NCBI GenBank assembly: GCA_027925225.1
Contig: AP027131.1
Coordinates: 120,001-152,000 of the forward strand
Source: Candidatus Saccharimonadota bacterium
Lineage (GTDB): Bacteria > Bacillota_I > Bacilli_A > Mycoplasmatales > Hepatoplasmataceae
Reading direction: 5' to 3'
DNA: 32,000 nucleotides
In this document: positions 1,330 to 32,000 of the stretch, one piece after another
Numbering within the stretch: the first letter of the stretch is position 1
Layout: every line of letters begins with the position of its first letter
The notes under the pieces: model-generated
What the model was told of the DNA's origin: nothing
Database searches by the model: none
The model's input: the letters and a program-made list of their open reading frames with translations, nothing else
Program-made: the position numbers and the translations under genes

Positions 1330-1415
1330 GGAGGGGTAGCGAAGTCTGGTTAAACGCGGATGACTGTAGATCATTTCCTTCGGGTTCGGGGGTTCGAATC
1401 CCTCTCCCTCCACCA
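1330..1415 (+). tRNA. tRNA-Tyr (anticodon GTA), type II with long variable arm, CCA encoded
   Basis: Acceptor GGAGGGG/TCCCTCC; anticodon stem GATGA/TCATT with loop CTGTAGA; long variable arm TTTCCTTCGGGT; T-loop GGTTCGAATCC; ends ACCA. Confidence 0.95.
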
Positions 1416-1419
1416 GTAT

Positions 1420-1494
1420 TGGCCCGTAGCCAAGAGGCAAGGCATCTGGTTTTGGTCCAGAAATTCGTAGGTTCGAGTCCTGCCGGGCCAGCCA
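1420..1494 (+). tRNA. tRNA-Gln (anticodon TTG), CCA encoded
   Basis: Acceptor TGGCCCG/CGGGCCA; anticodon stem TCTGG/CCAGA with loop TTTTGGT; T-loop GGTTCGAGTCC; ends GCCA. Confidence 0.95.
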
Positions 1495-1498
1495 ATAT

Positions 1499-1574
<76 letters not shown>

Positions 1575-1577
1575 TTA

Positions 1578-1663
1578 GCCCAGGTGGTGGAATGGTAGAC
1601 ACGAGGGACTTAAGCTCCCTTGGCAGTATTGCTGTGCGGGTTCAAGTCCCGCTCTGGGCACCA
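1578..1663 (+). tRNA. tRNA-Leu (anticodon TAA), type II, CCA encoded
   Basis: Acceptor GCCCAGG/CTGGGC; anticodon stem AGGGA/TCCCT with loop CTTAAGC; long variable arm; T-loop GGTTCAAGTCC; ends ACCA. Confidence 0.95.
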
Positions 1664-5140: not shown

Positions 5141-6376
5141 ATGAAAAAGTATGCATTTCCAATAATAATTTTCTCTGTAATAATCAGCTTTATTTTATTT
5201 TTTATAATTTGGTTTTTTGCAATTCCAAATTTCAATAAACAAGTAAGTAAATTAAAAAGTAATTTATATTTTGTTCCTTTAAATCCTGAAAAAGCGACAA
5301 ATGAAGATTGGATTTTTTTAAATGAAAAATCTTGAATATACATTTCTTCTATTGATGTAAGTAATTTTTCATTTGTTTATTGAAATTTTCTTGTAAATGA
5401 TGATGATCCAAATAATTTATATTTTTATTTAAACAAAAATACATCAGAAATTCAATCAGAGTATTCTGATCAATTAAAAGACTCAATTTTACAATTAGCA
5501 GTATATTTTACCTCTCTTAAATACCTTACATATACAGAAGAGTTTGCAGATATTATAATAAAAGAAAATGAAAAAAAAGTTTTAGGATCATCAGGAACTC
5601 ATTATTATTTTTCTCCTTATATGATTTATTCGCAAGATAATGTCCAAAAAACAACAGCCTCAAATACAAAACAAGCTAAAGTAAATCCTTTAGAATTTTT
5701 AATTGAATATAGAAATATAAATTATGATTTGCACATTGGATATAAATTACCAGAATGAATTTATCAAGATTATCACAAAAAAGGTTCTGCAAATTATACA
5801 AAAGAAGAATTTAGCTCTTTTTCAAAAAATAATTTTAAAAATTACAATAAGCAATATGAGGATGTACTTGGAATTGGTAGTTCTCCAAGCGAAAGTCCAA
5901 TGATTACAGTAAAATGAGATGAACAAACTTTTAATAATCCTGATTTATTAGTAAATGATGCTATTTATGACGGATATGTTATGCAGAGAAGTAATTTATT
6001 TGGTGATTCAAATTTTTTAAATAATGATGATGTTCCGGTTAATAATGGAGTCAAATTTACTCCAAAATATTTAAAAAGCGCAGAAACAATGATGCATGAA
6101 GTGGGTCATAATTTGGGATATGAGCATACAAATAGTGTTGAATATTACGATGCAGTTTATTGAGCTGGAGAGGCATATCAATATGTTTATAATTTAACTT
6201 TTAGAAGTGAAAAATATAATAAAAATATGACAGTATCTGATTGATTTATGAATGAAATAAATATGAATGGCTCATATGAATGAGAACATTATAATTTATA
6301 TGATTATTTATGAGATTTTGAAAATAACAGTTTAGGAGATATTCTTCTTACAAATAATTATTATAATCCATCTTAA
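5141..6376 (+). CDS. Membrane-anchored zinc metalloprotease, metzincin/reprolysin-like (411 aa)
   Basis: N-terminal TM anchor YAFPIIIFSVIISFILFFIIWFFAI. The extended zinc motif 'AETMMHEVGHNLGYEHT' fits HExxHxxGxxH. Frame 2 is open 5141-6376 with TGA=Trp, joining track ORFs 5141..5335 and 5981..6163. Confidence 0.7.
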
Positions 6377-6477
6377 TTTTTAATATTTTAAAAACAATAG
6401 TTATAAATAATAATTAAATTAGAGAATTACTTATTTTATAATACTATTATTAATAAAGTGTTAGTAGTAAATGAGAT

Positions 6478-7677
6478 ATGGAAAAAAATAAAGATCATAG
6501 ACAATTGGGGATAGAGATGGATTTATTTTTTATTGATCCATTTGTAGGAAAAGGTTTTCCTATTTGATTACCTAATGGATTAATATTAAAAAATAAAATA
6601 AGAGATTTTATCATAGAACAAGAAAAAAAATATAATTTTGAATTAGTTGAAACACCAGTTATTGGGAGTGTTGAACTTTATAAAAAATCAGGTCATTATG
6701 ATCATTATAAAGAAAACATTTTTCCTATAATGAAATTAGATGAAGGGGAAGAATTTGTTTTAAGACCAATGGCTTGTCCTCATCATATTATGATTTATAA
6801 ACATAAGTTAAGATCATATAAAAATTTGCCGATAAGACTTGCAGAACAAGTTTATCAATTTAGATATGAATCATCTGGTGGGCTTTTGGGGCTTGAAAGA
6901 GTAAGAGCAATGAATCTTACTGATTCTCATATTTTTTTAAGAGATGATCAAATTGAGCAAGAAATTGAAAATGCTTTTAATATTGTTAAATCAACTTTAG
7001 AAAAATTTAATATTAATATTGATTATATTGAACTTGCACTTCATGATCCAAAAGATAAAGAAAAATATCATCAAGATGATGAAAAATGAAGATTAGCAGA
7101 ACAAAGTTTAAAAAATTTTTTAGAAAATAAGAATATAAAATATATTTCAAAAATTGGTGAAGCAGCATTTTATGGACCAAAAATAGATATTCAAATTAAA
7201 ACAAAATTAAATCATATAATTACACTTTCAACTATTCAACTTGATTTTGTACTTCCGGAAAAATTTGATATTTTTTATGTTGATAAAAATTTAAATAAAA
7301 AAAGACCAATAATGATTCATAGAGGACTCATTGGTACTTATGAAAGATTTATTTCTGTTCTTTTAGAACAAACTCAAGGAGATTTTCCTCTTTGACTTGC
7401 TCCGATTCAAGTTGCTGTTGTTCCTGTTTCAAAATATCAATCAAATTATGCAAATGAAATTTATAATTCTTTAATAGATAATAATATTAGAGCAATTTTA
7501 GATGATACAGAAGAGAGATTATCAAATAAAATTAGAATTTTAAATGAAAGAAAAGTAAAAATTCAGTTAATTGTTGGCGAAAATGAAGAAAGAGATGGAA
7601 AAGTTTCTTGTAGATTATTAGGAAAAAAAGCAAATAAAATAGTAGTTTTAAAAGATATATTGAATTTATTTAAATAA
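6478..7677 (+). CDS. thrS: Threonyl-tRNA synthetase, catalytic core plus anticodon-binding domain only (399 aa; N1/TGS and N2 editing domains absent)
   Basis: Starts MEKNKDHRQLGIEMDLFF, the segment that opens the ThrRS class-II core. Contains MACPHH, motif 2 FRYESSGGLLGLERVRAMNLTDSHIF, MIHRGLIGTYERF and the anticodon-domain LAPIQVAVVPV. Frame 1 is closed upstream by TAA 6454-6456. Absorbs track ORF 6730..7089. Confidence 0.9.
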
Positions 7678-7678
7678 G

Positions 7679-8593
7679 ATGAATGTAAATTTTAATAATT
7701 TTAAAAATATAAAAAACTATTCTTTTTTTCAAATAAAAATTTTATTAAAGAAAAAGAGTTTTTATTTATTAATATTTGTTCCTCTTTTATTTATGTTTAC
7801 AACAATGACTATAGGAACACTTGAACTTTTTTATGTTGGTGTTTTTTCTGGTACATTTTTAATTTCTACTCTTTTTATTTTTATGTTTTTTGAAAGAGAT
7901 AAAGAAATATATAAAAAAATTAATATTTCAAGATTTGAAAAAAACATTTCCTCCCTTCTTATTACTTTATTTTTAAATTGTATTTTGATGATTTTTATAG
8001 TTTTTTATTTTATAGTTTTTTCTGTATTTTTTAATATTTTAAATGTAGATGGAGAAGGTGCATTTTCATTAATTAAAAATTGAAATTATAGTTTTAGTGC
8101 TTTGACGGCTGCTTGAGGAATTGTGTTTTACTATATTATTTTATTTACATTAATGGCTTATTCATTTTATTTTTTATTAATTTCTATTTTTAAAAATGAA
8201 AAAACATTTTTTTTATTTTCAACTTCTTATATTATTTTTACAATACTTTTCGGTGGAGTAATTGGAAGTTATTTTGATTACAATATTAATTTATCAGAAA
8301 GCAATATACTTTTGGGCCAAATTTATTTAATGCCCACACTTCAAAGTAATTTAAATTTTGTGTTTTATGTTTCAAATTTATTTTCCTTTTTCTTTTTAAA
8401 TCAATTTGTTTATATGATGTTTTTAAATGTAAATTATGTGCTCGCTAATAATTTGGGAATTTCAGCATTTTTTAATTTTTTTCAATTTTATAGTATTTAT
8501 TGATTATTTTTAATTTTACTTCCATATTTATGAATAATGTTTTATTTTATTGTGGCTCATTGATTTAATAAAAAGAAATTAAGTAAGATATAA
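7679..8593 (+). CDS. ABC-2-like multi-pass membrane protein (304 aa)
   Basis: ATG 7679 is 1 nt after the thrS stop. Frame 2 joins track ORFs 7679..8083 and 8123..8503 across TGA, ending at TAA 8591-8593. Very hydrophobic, with the loop FFERDKEIYKKINISRFEKNISSLLIT in the position of the ABC-2 permease loop. Confidence 0.65.
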
Positions 8594-8604
8594 TTATCTT
8601 GTTT

Positions 8605-9771
8605 ATGAAAAAGGACATTAAGCAAAAAACAGATTTAATAAAAAATGTTGATAATAATTCAAAATATGAAGTATTAGAAAATAATCTTAAATTTAAAAAT
8701 ATAAAATCATGTTATGAGCTTATTCGCTTTTTTTTCAAAAGATATATACTTTCAATTTCGGTAATTTATATATATATATTTCCTATTTCATTTATTTTCT
8801 TATTATCATTTATGCCCTTATTTTTTTCGGGAACAATTCTTTATTCTACATCGTTATATTTTTCTGTTTTTGTAACATATGGGATTACATTTTATATTAT
8901 AAGAGAATCAACTCTTTATAAAAATATGGCTCAACTTGGCATAAAAAAAGAAACTATTTATTTTTCCATGTATATTTTAATTTTTATTACATCGTTTCTT
9001 GTTGTATTTTTTATTACTTTTTTAATTTGATTTCTTAGTGTTATTGGTTTTGTTACAGATTATTTTTATCCTCCCGTTCCACCTTCATCAAGATATTTTG
9101 GTCAAGCAAATATTCTAGATACAGCAAGTTCTCTTAGAGATGTGCATTGAAATATTTTTGCTTATTATTTTATTTTAATTGTTACAACAACTTTTATAAT
9201 TGCTTTTCTTTTTCAAGTTATTTCAAAAACATTAAAAAGTTATATTCTCTTGAGTATTGGTTATGTAATTTTTTGTGTTTTTTTATGTAATGAAATTTTT
9301 ATAACATATGCTCCAATACTTGAAGGATCCTATACACCTTATGATACCGGAGATGCAGGAGGCGTTTTTGAAGTAGCAAGCGATTCGGTTTATAGTTTTG
9401 ATGCTGCTAATAATACAATATCTATTTATCCTGAAAGATTATCTCAATTTAATGAATCATATAATTATGAATACATAAAAGCACCATCGGGACTTTTTGG
9501 AACAGATTTTTCATTTTTTTGATGAGTTGCATTATTATTCCCTTCAAATTATATAAATATGCTAGGTTATTCAATGTTTACATCAAATACAATAAAAGTT
9601 TTAGGAGATACAACGGTCACGGTCATGTACCAAGGAATTCCAATAAATGGATTTTCAATAAATTTTATGTTTTTCCGTGTTAATAATCCAGAGTGATTAT
9701 TAGTAATAGTTTGACCATATGTTATTTCAGCTTTTTATTTAGCCATTGGTTCTTATTTTTCATATAGATAA
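8605..9771 (+). CDS. ABC-2-like multi-pass membrane protein (388 aa) with an acidic extracytoplasmic loop
   Basis: ATG 8605 (track gives TTG 8599). Frame 1 joins track ORFs 8599..9030 and 9250..9522 across TGAs, ending at TAA 9769-9771. Several TM helices, with the loop ..EGSYTPYDTGDAGGVFEVASDSVYSFDAANNTISIYPERL.. Confidence 0.65.
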
Positions 9772-9802
9772 TAAATAATTAAAAAATCTATTATGTTTGC
9801 AA

Positions 9803-9837
9803 TTTTATAATGTAAAATGTATTTGTACATTATAAAA
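9803..9837. repeat. 12-bp perfect inverted repeat with 11-nt spacer in the permease/ATPase intergenic region
   Basis: TTTTATAATGTA (9803-9814), spacer AAATGTATTTG, then TACATTATAAAA (9826-9837). Each arm contains TATAAT on one strand. It is centred in the 97-nt gap between TAA 9769-9771 and ATG 9869 and is followed by a T-rich tract. Confidence 0.6.
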
Positions 9838-9868
9838 AATATTTCTTTTTTGTTTTTTGTGTTTTAAT

Positions 9869-12310
9869 ATGAATAAAAAAAGTAATGAAAATACTGAAAA
9901 TATTGTAGAAAAAAATACTTCAAATAAAGAAGATAATTTTGTTATAAATTATAACTATAATATATCCTTTTTTTCTGATATCAAAAAGAAGGAAAATAAA
10001 ATAAAAGATTTAAATAAAAATAATGAAAAACTTAATGAAAAAATAAAAGAAAAAACAGCAAATACAAATGATAAAAAAAATAAAAAATTTATAGAAGAAA
10101 TAAATGAAATAAAGAAATCAATTAAAGAAAATGAACATAAAATAAAACAATTATCTAATGAAATAAAAAGTTTAAAACTTAATGTAAAAAAACAAGATAA
10201 TGATTTAGTTGAAAAATCTTATATTAAAATTACAAATCTTAAAAAAAATTATGATGATAATAAAGTCCTAAAAAATATAAATTTAAATATTAAAAAGGGT
10301 GAAAGAGTTGCAATTATTGGTCATAATGGTTCTGGAAAATCAACATTAATTGAAATAATTTCAAAAACAAAAAGAGGAACATCTGGAAATATTGAATATA
10401 ACTTTGCATATTCAAAAGACGATTTTGGACAAAATATGGCTATCCAATTTCAAAGACTAAATTATCCAGAAGGTTATAAAGTAAAAGAAGTAATAACTTT
10501 TTTTTACAGAATGGTTCCAAAATATAAATCTTATACAAAAGAAGAATTTAAAAAATTAATAAAAGATTTTGGAATAAATGAGTTTTATAAAAAAAGCTTA
10601 ACATCACTTTCTGGCGGACAACAACAAAGAGTAAATTTATTTTTAACTTTTATTAAAAAGCCTTCTTTTTTAATTTTAGATGAATTATCTGCAGGATTAG
10701 ATATTGATATTTATGAAAAAATTATTAATTTGTTTTTAAATTATATAAAAACAAATAATGTTACAACAATTATTGTTTCTCATAATTTTAAAGAAATTAA
10801 ATATTTTTCTCAAAAAGTTTTTCTTTTAAAGAATGGTGTTTTAAGTAATCAATTAAAAATAGATGATCTTACAGAAGAAAAGTTTTTTAATCTTATTAAA
10901 AGAGAAAAAAACTTAAAAACAAATTTTGTTTTTAATTTTAAAAGAGATAAGGAAATAAAAGATAAATTAATTGTTAAATATTTAAAAGAAATAAGAAATT
11001 TTTATATGTTTTGAAAATACTCAATAAATGATTTTAAGGAAAAAATTGAAATAAATACATTTAAAAGAGATGAATTTTTAATAAAATTAGATATTTTAAT
11101 AGAAGAAGGAAATGCAATATATGCAGTTTTAAGAGAATTAATTTTAACAAAATCATCAAAGGGTAATACTAAGAAAATTTTTAGTAAAAAATTAAAACAA
11201 CAAGAAAAAGTACAAATTAAAATAGATAAACTAGAAGAAAAGAATGATTTATATTCTTATTTATTGAGTGATGATTTTTCGCTTTTAAGATTGAATAGAT
11301 TTAAAAAAATAATTAATATTCAAATAAATTATTATCAAATAATCGTAAATAGAAAACAAAAGAAATTTGATAAGTATTATAAAAAACATTCTGATTCAGA
11401 AAAAAGAAAAAAAATTTTAAAATTAGATTCTTTAGATAAAAAGGTAAAAGATAAAAAAGAATTTTTAATAAACAAAAAAGAATTACTAAAGAAAAAAGAA
11501 AAAGAAACAAAAGAACTTATACAAAAAATTGATGAAGAAAATATTTTAAATAAAAAAAGACACATAGATCAAATAAAAGTAATAAATTTAAAAAAATATT
11601 TTGGAATAAAACCTGCTATTAATGGAATAAATTTAACAATAAAAAAGGGTGAAAGAATTTCTATTACTGGACCTAATGGTTCGGGGAAAACAACTTTTGC
11701 TGAAATATTATCTACAACAAATTTAAAAACTATTGGGAAAATAAAATATTGATTTCCTTATAAATCAAAAGAAAAAATTAAGCATGAAATAGGAATGCAA
11801 TTTCAGGAAGCCATTTTTCCCTATGATTTAAAAGTAAAAGAAATTTTACATTTATTTTTAAAAGTTTCTATGTGAAGCATTACAGAAGAAGAATTGGATG
11901 AACTTATAAAAATTTTTAAAATTGAAAACTTGTTAGAGCAAAAAGGTGACATTCTTTCGGGCGGAGAAAGACAAAAATTAAATGTTTTAATTGCTTTACT
12001 TAAAAAACCAAGTATTTTAATTTTAGATGAAATATCAACTGGACTCGATATTGAATCAATAATGGATATAAATAATTATATTAAAAAATATTTAGATGAA
12101 ACAAATGCAACACTTATTTTAATTAGTCATAATCCTGGAGAAGCTCATAGATTAACAGATAAAGTTGTTATTTTAAAAGATGGGGTAGTTTTAGAGGAAA
12201 TAGATATTAGAAAAAAAAGCGAAAGACAAGTTGAAAAAATATTTAAAGATGTTTATATTGAAATAGAAAAAGAAAAGAAAATTGAGTTAAAAGAAATTGA
12301 GAATCAATAA
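9869..12310 (+). CDS. ABC transporter ATP-binding protein with two fused NBDs, each preceded by a Lys/Glu-rich coiled-coil segment (813 aa)
   Basis: Track ORFs 9857..11014, 11264..11752 and 11894..12310 share frame 2 and are separated only by TGA. NBD1: GHNGSGKST, LSGGQQQR, FLILDELSAGLD, VSHN. NBD2: GPNGSGKTT, LSGGERQK, ILILDEISTGLD, ISHN. The ATG at 9869 is preferred over TTG 9857. Confidence 0.85.
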
Positions 12311-12328
12311 GAAAAAGGAGAGAATTGT

Positions 12329-13549
12329 ATGCTTACATATACTAAAACCTTATTTAAACAATATTTAAGAACACCATATACGTATATAGCATTTTTGCTC
12401 CCCATTTTATTTATTGTTGGATTGGGTAAAATTATTCCTGCTGGTCTTGTTATTCCTTCTGCTATTACGATAGGTGTTACAATTTCAATTCTTTTTTTAT
12501 TTGGCGGAACTGTACAAGAAATGAGGAGTACATCTTTTATTAAATCTATTTCTATTACAAAACTTTCAAAATCATCAATTGTTCTTGTAAATATGTTTGT
12601 TGCTTCAGTAATTTCTATTTTTGCAATTATTGTTATTTTAGCACTTTCCTACGGACTTGATTCAGCAGGTTTTTTTGCACAAGATTTTACTGCTTTTTCA
12701 CCCGATACTGAGGTTTTAAAATATCTAAACTCAACAATTATTTGAAATGAAGTTGAGTGAGGGACATTTGTTTATGCAGTAATTCTTACTGCGATACTTT
12801 CCTTTGCCATTGCATATTTAATTATCTCATTTACTAAAACAACAAATTCGCTTTATATCATTTCATTTATTTATGTATTTGTAATGATTTTAATGGGTGG
12901 TATTTTAGTTCCAACTATTCTTTCTGTTCTTACTGGGTCTTTTGTACAATATTTAAATGTTTGAGTTCCTCATTATTATACTAATCAGTTAATGTCTGCT
13001 TCTATGGTCACTGATAATGTGGTATTAGGGAATTTAATAAAAACAATAGATGAAAATGGTGGCGCCGGCGCCTATATAGTTAGCCTTCTTTCTAATTTAC
13101 CTAGTTTAGATTCTTGAAATTGAGATGCAATTTCTCATGATGTTAATTTAATAGATAGTTTTATAAAAAGTGGTTCTGATACAACAAGTTATGAAGCATT
13201 TACTGATTTTTTAGGATATAAAGATCCAGCAGATGCCTTTGATTCTGAATTATTTAAAATTCTTGTAGAACCCCGTCTTGTTAGTGTGCCTGTTTTAGGT
13301 AACATTTCAATTTTAGAAATTCTTTGTTTTGGAGCTGATGGTGTTGGTCCATTTATACCCATAGTAGATTTTAATCATTTTTTAGCTATTATTTCTAATA
13401 ATAGTGATGTTATTATTCAATATACACATAGTGTGACTACATGAGATTTTAATTCTTATGAATCGATTGCAAATTCATTTATGCCTATAATTGTTGCTGA
13501 TGTATTTGCTACAATTGGAATTTATAAATTTAATTGAACAATAAAATAA
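12329..13549 (+). CDS. ABC-2-type permease with a large C-terminal extracytoplasmic insert (406 aa)
   Basis: ATG 12329 is preceded by AAAAGGAGAG (Shine-Dalgarno). Frame 2 is open to TAA 13547-13549 with TGA=Trp and absorbs track ORF 12329..12745. Paralogous to 13735..14805 (PAGLVIPSAITIGV / PSGMIIPSVITFSS; VPHYYTNQLM / MPHYYTNKII). Confidence 0.75.
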
Positions 13550-13722
13550 TTTTAATAATGTTAAATTAAATTTTTATTTATTAATTTAAAGCAAATATTT
13601 TTTATTTTAAAATTTATTAAACATATAAAATAATTGCACTATAACTCTGAATATTTACTTTATTAATGTTAAATATTTATCTTTTAAAAAAACAAGAGAA
13701 CAGATTAAAGTAATTTTTTTAA

Positions 13723-13728
13723 TATAAT
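13723..13728 (+). promoter_or_regulatory. -10 box (TATAAT) 6 nt upstream of ATG 13735; candidate leaderless transcript
   Basis: TATAAT-TGTCTT-ATG with no Shine-Dalgarno. It lies in the 185-nt gap between the paralogous permease genes. Confidence 0.3.
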
Positions 13729-13734
13729 TGTCTT

Positions 13735-14805
13735 ATGGGCCCATATTTTGCGTTTACATTCAAAAAATATTACACCTCTAAAGCATTTTATTTTTCATTG
13801 CTTTTTTCTTTAATATTATTAATTTCAATGGGTTGAATTTTGCCTTCTGGAATGATAATTCCATCTGTTATTACTTTTTCATCATTAATAATAATAATGG
13901 TAATGTTTGGTGGTTCTATTCTCGAAATGAGAAAGACCTCGCTTATTAAGTCGCTTTCTTTGACAAATGTTTCTAAGATTAATTATTTTGTTGTGAATAT
14001 AACAATGGCGACAATTTTTACTTTTATTTCTGTAATTATAATTTTATTTTTTTCATGAGTTCTTACAGATATTGGTTTTTTAGTTGATGATTTTTCTGCA
14101 TTTGGTAGGCCAGAACTTGTAGCTGCAGTTGATTGAAAAAATGTTGAATGAGGTTCTTTTGTTTATGGAATATTAATGACTGTGGCTATAAGTTTCTCTC
14201 TTGCTTTTCTTGTAATATCTTTTACAAAATCTTCTTTTAGTCTTTATTTATTCATTTTTGTTTATTCGTTCTTTTTATTTTCAATGGGGGATTTAATTAT
14301 TCCTAAATTTGTTTATGAAGGTACAAATTACAAGTTTATAAATGATTTGTATTGAGCAATGCCTCACTATTATACAAATAAAATTATTTCGGGTTCTTTA
14401 ACAACAACAAATGCGTTATCTACTCAATTTCAAAATGAAGACTTAATTTTAAGTGATTTACATGCTTTAGAAGCATGAATAAATTCTGGCTTTCCAGTTA
14501 CTGGAACCGGACCTTTAAATACAGCAATTGATTGATCTCAAGTTAATGGATATGAGAATGGATATGATTTTAATTATGATTTTTTTGAAAATTCCATTTT
14601 AATTAATTGAGCATCTGATTGAGAAAATCAAGAAACATTCTTGACCTTAGTTTATACATTTGATTCGTTATTAACTTTTGGTGATGAATATGAGCTTTGG
14701 GTTTTTGGTTCATTTAGATCAATGATGATTTGTTTCTTTCCTTTATTTTTATTCTTTTTATTTACATATATCTCAACAAAAAGTTTTAGTTGAGCGAAAA
14801 GGTAG
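13735..14805 (+). CDS. ABC-2-type permease, paralog of 12329..13549 (356 aa)
   Basis: ATG 13735; frame 1 is open to TAG 14803-14805 with TGA=Trp and absorbs track ORF 13840..14058. Same helix and loop order as the preceding gene, but with a different Trp/Asn/Asp-rich external insert. Confidence 0.75.
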
Positions 14806-28495: not shown

Positions 28496-30415
28496 ATGAA
28501 TTCAAATGTTTTTAAACATAGAATAATAGAGAAAAAATGACAAAAATATTGAAAAAAAAATAATTTATTTAAAACTAATTTAAAAAGCAAAAAAGAAAAA
28601 TTTTATGTTTTAGATATGTTTCCTTATCCTTCTGGGTCTGGTCTTCATGTTGGCCATCCAGAAGGGTATACAGCAACTGATATTATAGCAAGAATGAAGA
28701 GAATGCAAGGTTATGAAGTTTTGCATCCAATTGGTTGAGATGCATTTGGTCTTCCCGCAGAGCAGTATGCTATTAAAACTGGAAATGATCCAAAAAGTTT
28801 TACAAAAAAAAACATTAGTAATTTTAAAAAACAATTAGTTTCACTTGGTTTTTCTTTTGATTGAAGTAGAGAAGTAAATACTTCTGATCCAAAATACTAC
28901 AAATGAACACAATGAATTTTTGCAAAACTTTATAGAGAGGGTCTTGTTGAATTAAAAGATATTGAAATAAATTGATCTGAATCTTTAAATACAGTACTTG
29001 CAAATGAAGAAATAATTAAAAATGAAAACGGCGAAGATGTAGCTGAAAGAGATGGATTGCCTGTTTTTAAAAAAAATATGAAGCAATGAGTAATTTTAAT
29101 TACTAAATATGCTGATAAATTATTTGAAGGATTGGATGATTTAGATTGGCCAGATTCTTTAAAAAAAATACAAAAAAATTGAATATATGAAAAAGATGAA
29201 AATGGTAAAAATAAATTACATCTAAAAGATTGGATTTTTGCAAGACAAAGATATTGAGGAGAGCCTTTTCCTCTTATTCATTTTGATGACGGGGAAATAT
29301 ATTTAATTCCAGAAAGAAAATATCCTGTTCTTTTACCAAAAATTAAAAATTATAAATTTTCTTTAGATGGAAAACCGGCGCTTTCTAAAGCAATAAAATG
29401 AAGCAATGTAAAAATAAAAGGAAGACATGGCATAAGGGATTTAAATACAATGCCACAATGAGCTGGTTCTTGTTGATATTTTATTGCTTATCTTTTAAAA
29501 AACAATAATAATTATTTGGCTTTAGATTCTTCTAAAGCTAAAAGTATTTTAGATAAATGGCTTCCAATTGATTTATATATTGGCGGAAGAGAGCATGCTA
29601 CATCGCACTTAATATATGCAAGATTTTGAACAATGTTTTTAAGTGATATCAATATAACAAAAATAAATGAACCATTTAAAAGAATATTTAATCAGGGAAT
29701 GATTCTTGGTGAAGATAATCAAAAAATGTCTAAATCCAAAGGAAATGTAATTAATCCAAATTTTTACATTGAAAAATATGGTGCTGATACATTAAGACTA
29801 TATGAAATGTTTATGGGTCCACTTGAAGATGTAAAATCTTGATCTAATAAAAGTATTCATGGAATGCACATTTGAGTAGAAAGAGTTTATAAATTTTTTA
29901 TTGGGGAAGCAATTTATATAAAAGATGAAGAAGTTTCATTTGAAAATAAAAAAGCATTTAATAAGCTTTTAGAGAAAATAAATAATCATTTTCCTAAATT
30001 AAAATTTAATGTTTCTGTTTCTGAAATGATGATTTTTATAAATACAGTTTATAAGAATCCAAGAATTTCAAAAGAAATGGCAATAAAGTTTTTACAAATA
30101 TTATCTTGTTTTGCTCCACATATTTCTGATGAAATATATTCTAAAATTAAAAGACAACAAAAAAGCATATCTTTTGTTTCTTGACCGATTAAATATGAAT
30201 TAAAAAAAGAAGAAGAATTAAAAACAATTTTACTTCAAATAAATGGAAAAGTAAGAGCAACTTTTCAAGTTAAATTTTCTTTTGACTTGGAAAATTTAAA
30301 GCAAAAAGAAATTTTAAAATTAATATGTAAATATGCGCCAAAATATTGTACTGATAAATCAAAATTAAAAAATATTTTTATTATAAAAAATAGAATTATT
30401 TCTATAACAGTTTAA
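28496..30415 (+). CDS. leuS: Leucyl-tRNA synthetase lacking the CP1 editing domain (639 aa)
   Basis: '[17 protein letters not shown]' (HIGH), '[15 protein letters not shown]', '[14 protein letters not shown]', 'RQRYWGEPFP', 'KMSKSKGN'. Frame 2 is open 28496-30415 with TGA=Trp and absorbs track ORF 29633..29842. '[33 protein letters not shown]' shows only about 12 residues where CP1 (about 190 aa) normally sits. Confidence 0.92.
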
Positions 30416-30530
30416 CTTTAAAAATAAAAAAATAGTGTTCTGTTATTTTTTAACATTAAAACTAATGTGATAAAATTATCTTAGTATATTGTTTATCCAA
30501 TTTAATTTATATTAAATATAAACACACAAA

Positions 30531-32000
30531 ATGAATGAAAACGATATTAAAAAATTAATATTAAAACTTAAAAAACATTTAATTTTTGATAAACAAGAAA
30601 TAAAAATTTTAGAACAATTTACAAAAACAGGAAATTTATTAAAATTTATCCAATACAAAGTAATTAATGAAAATTTAGCTGATGGAAATTTTAAAAGTTA
30701 TTATTTTTCAAATAAAGATTGAATAGAAAAAGAAATTTTAAAAAAATCAGATAATTACTGAAGCTTTGTAAAGGGTGAATCTTATAGTTTTGTAGATATA
30801 AGTTCTACTTTATTTTTCTTTTTGCTAAAACCCATTTTTCTTAATTTTAAAAGCAAAAATAGAAAGGTTTCTATAATATTTATTGATGAAAAGATTTATA
30901 AAAAATTAGGTAATTATGAATCAATTATGTTTTCTAAAGAATTATTTTTAGAAAACATAATTGAAAAAGATTTAAACAAATTTAAAGAAAAAAATTGTGA
31001 TTTTGCATTGTTTATTTATAAAAAAGTAAAAGATAAATCATATTTTAAATTTATTGATTATTTTTTATTTGAAAAAGAAGATTCTAATAATTTTTATTTT
31101 AAAATAAATAAAAAATCAATTGAACCTTTAGATTTTGAGGAAATTAATAAATTAAAAAATAAAAGTAAAATTTCTTTAAGTTTTGTTGAAGAAAAATCAA
31201 AAATTATTAGAGAAACCGTTAATAATAATATAGATTCTTTTCATAAAAAAATAATAGAAAAATTAAAAGATTCTAAAGAAAATAAAGAAATAAATTTTAG
31301 CGAAATAAATAATATGATTAAAAAAGAAGGAGAATCAATAAAAGAAATACTTGAAAATTATTTTAAAAATTTAGTAAATCAAAATTCAAATGAATTAAAT
31401 ATTGAAGGAAAATTAAAAGATATTATTCAAAAATTTAATAATAAATTAACTGAAATATTTGAGAAAAAAGAAACTTCTGAAATTTCAAATATTAATTTAT
31501 TAGAAGAAAAAATTAATGATTTAAAAGAAAAAATTGATGAAGAATTAAATGAGAGGTTTTTTGAATCAATAAATGTTGAAGGAATAATAGAATTAAATAA
31601 AAAAGAATTAGTTAATCAAATAGATAATTTAAAAATTGATATTAAAAGCGAGAGAGAAGATTTTTCAAAAACCTTAGATTTAAAGCTTCAAAAATTTTTT
31701 GAAAAAATTCTTAAATCAGAAGAAATAAATTCTACTTTTGATATTAACGATATTAAAAAGCAAATTAAATTTGAAAATGAAAAATTACAACAAATTTTTG
31801 ATAAAAAATTTGAAAAATATGTAGAAAATGTTCAAAAAAATAACACATCAATTGTTTCTTTTGAATTAAAAAATTTAAAAGATCAAATAAACTTTAGACA
31901 AAAAGAATTTGAAAAAACATTAACATCAAGTTTTGAAAATATTATCCAAAATCAAGAAAAAATAGGTAGTTTAAAATATGAATTAGAATCTTTTATAAAT
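30531..32000 (+). CDS. Large hypothetical protein: ~190-aa N-terminal globular region followed by an extended Lys/Glu/Asn-rich coiled coil (490+ aa, 3' end outside window)
   Basis: ATG 30531 (track ORF 30531..30722). Frame 3 stays open to the window end with only two in-frame TGAs. The sequence after about residue 200 is heptad-like (..LKEKIDEELNERFFESINVEGIIELNKKELVNQIDNLKIDIKSERE..). Confidence 0.6.

Follow-up and report, generated by a model that had tools for sequence, protein, structure and literature searches.

The threonyl-tRNA synthetase (ThrRS) gene, thrS, in a 32,000-nucleotide stretch of contig AP027131.1 (positions 120,001 to 152,000 of the forward strand; the whole of this stretch is called the window below) encodes a 399-residue enzyme that opens at the class II catalytic core and has neither of the N-terminal domains, N1 and the editing domain N2. 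It is very probably a working minimal bacterial ThrRS, a natural equivalent of the truncated Escherichia coli ThrRS. Sequence comparison with its relatives indicates that the gene is the end point of a stepwise decay within the Hepatoplasmataceae, and not the outcome of a sudden loss of proofreading. The product has the same sequence (100% identity) as HPAVJP_1180 of Candidatus Hepatoplasma vulgare. This uncultured mollicute comes from the gut gland of Armadillidium vulgare, a pill bug, and the contig (662,079 bp, 22.7% GC) belongs to a genome published in 2024 (PMC10928387). Aminoacyl-tRNA synthetases are not mentioned in that Hepatoplasmataceae genome paper or its supplement (PMC10928387).

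The ThrRS Gene and Its Product

The window has a GC content of 23.2%, and all of its long reading frames contain internal TGA codons; the window is therefore translated with genetic code 4, in which TGA specifies tryptophan. Three of these in-frame TGA codons lie in thrS, at residues 30, 204, and 306. The frame proposed in the initial annotation was reproduced exactly: it is closed upstream by TAA at 6454-6456, its first start is the ATG at 6478, and it ends with the TAA at 7675-7677 after 399 codons. The features of the gene are as follows.

6478..7677, plus strand: thrS coding sequence, stop codon included; 399-residue ThrRS without N1 and N2 (code 4 translation, TIGR00418, AlphaFold model)
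6490..7377, plus strand: class II catalytic core, residues ~5-300 (Pfam tRNA-synt_2b; alignment to 1NYQ and 1QF6 from residues 239 and 241, respectively)
6775-6777, 6928-6930, and 7318-7320, plus strand: zinc ligands C100, H151, and H281 (alignment to E. coli C334, H385, and H511)
7408..7665, plus strand: anticodon-binding domain, residues 311-396 (Pfam HGTP_anticodon, E 2.7e-15)

A Pfam scan of the 399-residue product matched tRNA-synt_2b at residues 88-298 (E 2.5e-35) and HGTP_anticodon (PF03129) at residues 311-396 (E 2.7e-15), and these were the only domains matched, neither TGS nor tRNA_SAD being among them, just as the initial annotation had anticipated. The NCBIfam thrS model (TIGR00418) scores 483.2 bits against a cutoff of 383.65, with only positions 169-558 of its 565 covered; by this curated cutoff, the enzyme is classed as a bacterial-type threonine--tRNA ligase. 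When aligned to solved structures, it corresponds to residues 239-626 of the Staphylococcus aureus enzyme (1NYQ) and residues 241-611 of the E. coli enzyme (1QF6), so that its start falls at E. coli residue ~238-241, and its match to the engineered truncated E. coli ThrRS (1EVK/1EVL, 401 residues) runs from end to end. Not one of its residues aligns to E. coli positions 1-62 (N1) or 63-224 (N2). The motifs quoted earlier were all located, DHRQLG at residue 6, MACPHH at residue 98, DSHIF at residue 149, and MIHRG at residue 279, and the Pfam scan, the alignments to 1NYQ and 1QF6, and the six-frame searches described below agree with the view that the enzyme opens at the class II core, with N1 and N2 absent.

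The active site is intact. At the three zinc ligands (C/H/H) and at 20 active-site positions, the enzyme carries the residues that form the consensus among editing-competent relatives. In a column-by-column comparison of eight short forms (enzymes without the N-terminal half) with 112 long forms, no short-form-specific substitution was found at active-site positions, and we rejected compensating active-site changes on this ground; over all columns there is a single short-form-specific one, which the window ThrRS does not share.

An AlphaFold model (AF2, 42 sequences) has a mean predicted local distance difference test score (pLDDT) of 93, exceeding 90 in the anticodon-binding domain, and a predicted template modelling score of 0.91. 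It superimposes on 1EVK with template modelling (TM) scores of 0.91/0.91 over 392 columns, and on S. aureus ThrRS with a query-normalized score of 0.93-0.94 at 44% identity. The agreement with the yeast mitochondrial enzyme MST1 (3UGQ, 4EO4) is also close (TM ~0.90/0.86, 32% identity), and that with Aeropyrum pernix ThrRS-1 (3A31) amounts to TM 0.85/0.74 at 27% identity. The archaeal ThrRS model PRK03991 gives 187 bits, with a cutoff of 484.

Search for a Concealed N-Terminal Region

We searched all stop-to-stop frames of the six reading frames with ten N1/N2 queries (tblastn) and with three profile hidden Markov models (HMMs) built from full and degenerate N-terminal regions, the profiles being run on the window and on six related loci. 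No N1/N2 homology was found in the 32-kb window (tblastn best E >0.05; HMM best E 0.28), nor, by the same HMM search, at the related loci L080 and L082-L085. The candidate explanation of a frameshift or concealed N-terminal coding sequence was rejected because no frame of the window gave an N1/N2 match, and the statement of the initial annotation that nothing upstream encodes these domains thus holds for the other frames as well. The region in question contains the following features.

6377..6477, plus strand: A/T-rich spacer of 101 nucleotides without N1/N2 coding capacity (stops in all three frames; no HMM or tblastn match)
6429..6452, plus strand: 24-nucleotide block ACTTATTTTATAATACTATTATTA, including TATAAT at 6437-6442, putative thrS promoter (identical in L080)
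5141..6376, plus strand: upstream neighbour, a 411-residue protein with an N-terminal membrane anchor and a metzincin-type zinc motif, HEVGHNLGYEH, at 6095-6127

The 101-nucleotide A/T spacer with its TATAAT is present as had been described. The 24-nucleotide block is identical in the window and in L080, an 88%-identical relative, and the spacer on either side of it is diverged or deleted; this pattern suggests that the block is probably the thrS promoter. A consensus promoter scan is uninformative in such A/T-rich DNA (14 matches vs. 18 expected), and an Rfam scan found no T-box or other Rfam leader element upstream of thrS.

The upstream neighbour is complete, and two relatives, L080 (76% identity) and L081 (43%), have orthologues of it in the same place upstream of thrS. 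Its sole Pfam match, Reprolysin_3, is below threshold (E 5.7e-4, 20.8 bits vs. a cutoff of 22.4). With its zinc motif and this sub-threshold match, it is metalloprotease-like and unrelated to ThrRS, in keeping with the earlier description of an unrelated protease. Extra peptidases have been discussed for these symbionts, and this protein may be among them.

Short ThrRSs in Hepatoplasma and in the Candidate Phyla Radiation

Short ThrRSs of 399-414 residues form eight clusters at 90% identity, including that of the window itself (P0001). Their carriers are Ca. H. vulgare, Ca. H. crinochetorum Av and Tokyo2021 (one cluster), H. crinochetorum Ps, and H. scabrum, and four of the eight clusters are contigs from metagenome read sets. 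The short form is thus common to every sequenced Hepatoplasma. The gene occurs in at least three neighbourhoods: after the protease-like gene, after gap-pgk-tpi, and before engB with divergent or other genes on the upstream side. The identical 399-residue architecture is found in the independent assembly L080, and the ratio of nonsynonymous to synonymous substitution rates (dN/dS) between the window and L080 is 0.14, which indicates that thrS is under purifying selection.

The short form is not confined to this genus. Among 78 ThrRS loci from genome representatives, the N-terminal extension is absent in two: L009 (1648-2868, plus strand), from Ca. Daviesbacteria, and L074 (~5950-7227, plus strand), which is binned as Gammaproteobacteria and whose ThrRS falls in the same group. 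Because the ThrRS of L074 belongs to the clade of the candidate phyla radiation (CPR), the gammaproteobacterial binning may be wrong. A protein search seeded with L009 recovered at least 45 clusters (P0122-P0166) of 401-421 residues from Microgenomates-type CPR bacteria, in which infC follows the gene and the nearest longer relatives have ~600 residues with tRNA_SAD. The window ThrRS is only ~40% identical to these short CPR forms, and the N-terminal loss is therefore independent. By these comparisons, a ThrRS without the N-terminal half is not unique to the window, being genus-wide in Hepatoplasma and having arisen independently in CPR Microgenomates.

Decay of the Editing Domain in Relatives

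The 120 best homologues were aligned together with an E. coli ThrRS reference. We take this reference to be correct, its numbering reproducing H73, H77, K156, D180, C182, and H186 and its core agreeing with the 1QF6 alignment. The aligned enzymes form a series, which begins with full-length enzymes carrying all six editing residues. It includes enzymes of ~571 residues that have no N1 and an intact N2 (HHKDCH), full-length Spiroplasma/Mesoplasma enzymes of ~645 residues in which all six editing residues are replaced, and ~50 enzymes of 498-585 residues with about two thirds of N2 left, which are the nearest longer relatives and include that of Ca. Tyloplasma litorale; the short forms are its last step. 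An alignment-free check found the HxxxH and CxxxH editing motifs in none of the 50 nearest longer relatives (N-termini of 102-187 residues), and the controls carry both. Because all 50 are without these motifs, the editing chemistry was lost before the domain was deleted. The deletion probably discarded an already dead domain, in which case the loss of proofreading would not have been caused by it. The initial annotation had read the removal of N1 and N2 as the loss of proofreading, and as a statement of cause this is probably not correct.

A neighbour-joining tree puts the short forms together; because this tree is crude, it gives no firm number of separate deletion events for the family. One 498-residue enzyme (P0006, on a 13.9-kb Logan contig) has an N-terminal stub of ~100 residues and clusters with the short forms in the same tree. 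It represents a further size step, with N-termini of 185, 135, 100, and 0 residues in the series.

A Split Gene in One Relative

In L081, a 73%-identical relative, thrS (8001-9242) encodes a core of 413 residues, and 16 nucleotides upstream of it lies an open reading frame (ORF) of 176 residues (P0121; 7455-7985, plus strand). This ORF has no sequence homologue among 5.8 billion proteins, and its identity rests on structure prediction and profile alignments. In hhalign comparisons it is collinear with the degenerate N2 profile (P 5e-4) and with N1 (P 0.005). Its AlphaFold model has a mean pLDDT of 75, rising to ~90 over the beta-grasp residues 1-61, and the top Foldseek matches in the PDB are 1NYR (E 5e-7), 1QF6 (7e-5), and the E. 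coli N1-N2 fragment 1TJE (1.8e-4), all of them ThrRS N-terminal regions, with TGS domains and mL39, a mitoribosomal protein related to ThrRS, as other matches. The ORF has neither the HxxxH nor the CxxxH motif of editing. It is probably a catalytically dead N1-N2 remnant, and as modelled it would be an intermediate between the degenerate-N2 enzymes and the short ones.

The local gene order can be compared across three loci. In L081 it reads protease-like gene, 78-residue membrane peptide, N1-N2 remnant, core; in L080, protease-like gene, 79-residue membrane peptide, core; and in the window, protease-like gene, core. Read in this order, the three loci document a stepwise shrinkage. The hydrophobic peptide ORF itself (5887-6126 in L080 and 7204-7440 in L081; 56% identical) is deleted in the window, at 6377-6477.

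We propose the following course of events. N1 would mostly have been lost first, as N2 shrank and lost HxxxH/CxxxH, a state seen in Ca. Tyloplasma and ~50 relatives; the dead N-terminal piece would next have split off as an ORF of its own, a state kept in one relative (L081); and the piece would last have been deleted, in all Hepatoplasma including the window.

Comparison with Known ThrRS Systems

Four structures represent the engineered truncated E. coli ThrRS (residues 242-642; 1EVK, 1EVL, 1FYF, and 1KOG), which has nearly the same boundaries as the window ThrRS and the same domains, with zinc ligands and active site kept. In 2000, Dock-Bregeon et al. reportedly showed in Cell that this truncated enzyme charges tRNA-Thr normally and also yields Ser-tRNA-Thr. 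It is, however, a laboratory construct of gammaproteobacterial origin and 34% identical, whereas the window ThrRS is natural, selected, and apparently the organism's own. Yeast mitochondrial MST1 (3UGQ, 3UH0, 4EO4, and 4YYE) is, like the window ThrRS, a natural enzyme without N2, but it is eukaryotic and organellar, has 460 residues with an N-terminal extension of its own, and arose independently. MST1 is reported to read an unusual tRNA, and according to work attributed to Ling et al. in 2012 this core-only enzyme is said to edit seryl-adenylate (Ser-AMP) before transfer.

The initial annotation had likened the enzyme to the crenarchaeal ThrRS-cat. Both are core-only charging enzymes, the latter compared here through A. 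pernix ThrRS-1 (3A31), and the two-ORF order in L081 also resembles the split crenarchaeal system. ThrRS-cat is nevertheless archaeal in type, and the window ThrRS does not reach the PRK03991 cutoff; it shares 44% identity with S. aureus ThrRS but 27% with A. pernix ThrRS-1, and the likeness is not the closest one. The free-standing archaeal ThrRS-ed is an active editor, whereas the L081 remnant has no HxxxH/CxxxH and the 32 kb of the window contain no such partner. Judged from the predicted structure, the truncated E. coli ThrRS (1EVK) and yeast MST1 are the best analogues.

The Mycoplasma variants come from the same lineage (Mollicutes) and show the same trend. Two types were reportedly described by Zhou et al. 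(JBC, 2016) and Li et al. (PNAS, 2011), the M. mobile type without N1 and with an intact N2, and the M. capricolum type with N1 and a degenerate N2, and both are visible among the aligned relatives. These variants keep the N2 fold, whereas the window ThrRS is without N1, N2, and the linker helix.

Function and Fidelity

From its architecture and conservation, the core would activate threonine, exclude valine via the zinc site, and charge tRNA-Thr. The intact active site, the dN/dS of 0.14, and the apparent single copy all point to threonylation of tRNA-Thr, and the gene is probably the only thrS of the genome. Because the N2 editing domain is absent, Ser-tRNA-Thr cannot be hydrolysed in cis, and a raised level of Ser-for-Thr substitution with no compensating editing is plausible on the sequence evidence. 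How much serine is misincorporated depends on pre-transfer editing, possible trans-acting factors, and amino-acid pools. A Pfam scan of the ten unannotated ORFs of the window found no trans-editing family, and a trans-editing factor inside the window was rejected on this basis.

Several points weigh against our reading. A core-only ThrRS may edit before transfer, by analogy with what is reported of MST1. P0049 and P0064 may be separate losses, given a crude tree, and the split-gene intermediate is an ORF devoid of sequence homologues whose model, based on a single sequence, has the modest mean pLDDT quoted above. Of the 662-kb genome, the searches for a second thrS or an editing factor cover 32 kb. 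In a survey of Mollicutes, homologues of YbaK, ProX, and AlaX were not found, dtd was limited to Acholeplasma, and thrS was present in single copy, but Hepatoplasma was not among the organisms surveyed (PMC4014445). Finally, errors need not become more frequent when an editing domain is lost (PMC11415595).

It is possible, although we regard it as somewhat doubtful, that the truncation is real and fidelity is kept by other means, namely pre-transfer hydrolysis of Ser-AMP in the synthetic site, as reported for yeast MST1, a deacylase that acts in trans and is encoded outside the window, or a host supply with a favourable Thr:Ser ratio, with no notable mistranslation as the result. The match of the AlphaFold model to MST1 (TM ~0.90) and the review evidence that editing-domain loss can accompany higher specificity (PMC11415595) speak for this view, as does the restriction of the searches to the window. 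On the contrary, the short forms have no specific active-site substitutions that would point to a re-tuned specificity, trans-editing families are missing from the surveyed Mollicutes (PMC4014445), and the unannotated ORFs of the window gave no editing-family match. Relatives have also lost the editing motifs and kept the domain, which suggests that editing was dispensable rather than replaced.

That the gene is an auxiliary or decaying paralogue, with a full-length second thrS elsewhere doing the main job, is very improbable. Cyanobacterial duplicate ThrRS genes do differ in editing ability (PMC4787780), and our inspection covers the window; but the top ThrRS homologues include a single Ca. 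H. vulgare protein, Mollicutes carry thrS in single copy (PMC4014445), no marker was scored as duplicated by BUSCO in these genomes (PMC10928387), the short form is present in every Hepatoplasma genome, and a low dN/dS with an intact active site does not suit a decaying copy. The notion that an assembly or annotation artefact or a pseudogene, through a frameshift or mis-join, conceals the N-terminal coding region draws on the modest coverage of a metagenome-assembled genome (Illumina 38x, Oxford Nanopore 15x; PMC10928387), but is effectively refuted by the empty searches of all frames of 32 kb, the intact upstream gene with orthologues in two relatives, the same architecture in L080 and the short form in seven other clusters, and the purifying selection on thrS.

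A Second Synthetase without Its Editing Domain

The window also encodes a leucyl-tRNA synthetase (LeuRS), 21 kb from thrS.

28496..30415, plus strand: leuS, 639-residue LeuRS without CP1 (end-to-end match to M. mobile LeuRS, 3ZIU)

Residues 3-632 of this LeuRS match residues 6-631 of 3ZIU (637 residues) with an E value of 3e-210, whereas canonical LeuRS matches break at residue ~232, where a linker of ~12 residues after NWI replaces CP1. The absence of CP1, noticed earlier, is thus supported both by collinearity with 3ZIU and by the break in the canonical matches. Two synthetases without editing domains in one 32-kb window fit the erosion of proofreading already known from Mollicutes (PMC4014445, PMC7373986, PMC10057733). 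The M. mobile LeuRS, of which the window LeuRS is an end-to-end orthologue, resembles the ThrRS case in the complete excision of the editing domain, but it is a class I enzyme, and the excised CP1 is an internal insertion and not an N-terminal module.

Other Genes of the Window

Between thrS and engB, at 7679-14805 (plus strand), lie four large multi-pass membrane proteins without a Pfam match and a two-domain ABC ATPase (~9869-12310). This cluster is also present in L080 and L081, and engB directly follows thrS in L083 and L084; given the latter order, the cluster looks like a lineage-specific insertion, or like a loss in the others. The genes for tRNA Tyr-GTA, Gln-TTG, Lys-TTT, and Leu-TAA are tightly packed at 1330-1663 (plus strand), only 3-5 nucleotides apart, and no tRNA-Thr gene was found within the 32-kb window. 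At 30522-32000 (plus strand), running off the end, a Lys/Glu-rich and apparently coiled-coil protein of more than 489 residues is encoded, for which no family match was found beyond a chance-level one to apolipoprotein.

Significance for Hepatoplasma and Related Bacteria

Proofreading loss in the synthetases of host-restricted bacteria is an established theme, for which reviews cite work by Li in 2011 and Melnikov in 2018 (PMC7373986, PMC10057733), and the present finding extends a known phenomenon. The previously described ThrRS cases, as far as we found, keep the N2 fold, and here the entire N-terminal half has been discarded, so that nature has produced its own version of the truncated enzyme constructed by biochemists in 2000. 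The sequence of events can still be read from the relatives: the catalytic motifs went first, the domain then became smaller, the gene was split, and at last the remnant disappeared. An independent CPR lineage has reached the same end state. These enzymes provide a ready comparative set for testing neutral decay of editing against compensated loss, and they direct attention to a genome with at least two synthetases without editing domains, ThrRS and LeuRS. The practical importance is modest, since ThrRS editing defects are mild in E. coli and tolerance of Thr-to-Ser substitutions is reported to be good (PMC10057733); the orthologue of Ca. H. crinochetorum, moreover, has been public since 2014.

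More speculatively, and in our opinion this is unlikely, Hepatoplasma might have lost cis-proofreading in the most synthetases of any bacterium described, or its core-only ThrRS might possess a compensating mechanism in the synthetic site. If the former were true, the loss in Hepatoplasma would exceed the limit of “no more than two” synthetases with lost proofreading given in a 2020 review (PMC7373986); if the latter were true, the enzyme would be a natural ThrRS that is minimal but accurate. Either way, together with the L081 intermediate and the CPR clade, these short enzymes would form a tractable natural series for the study of tolerated translational error.

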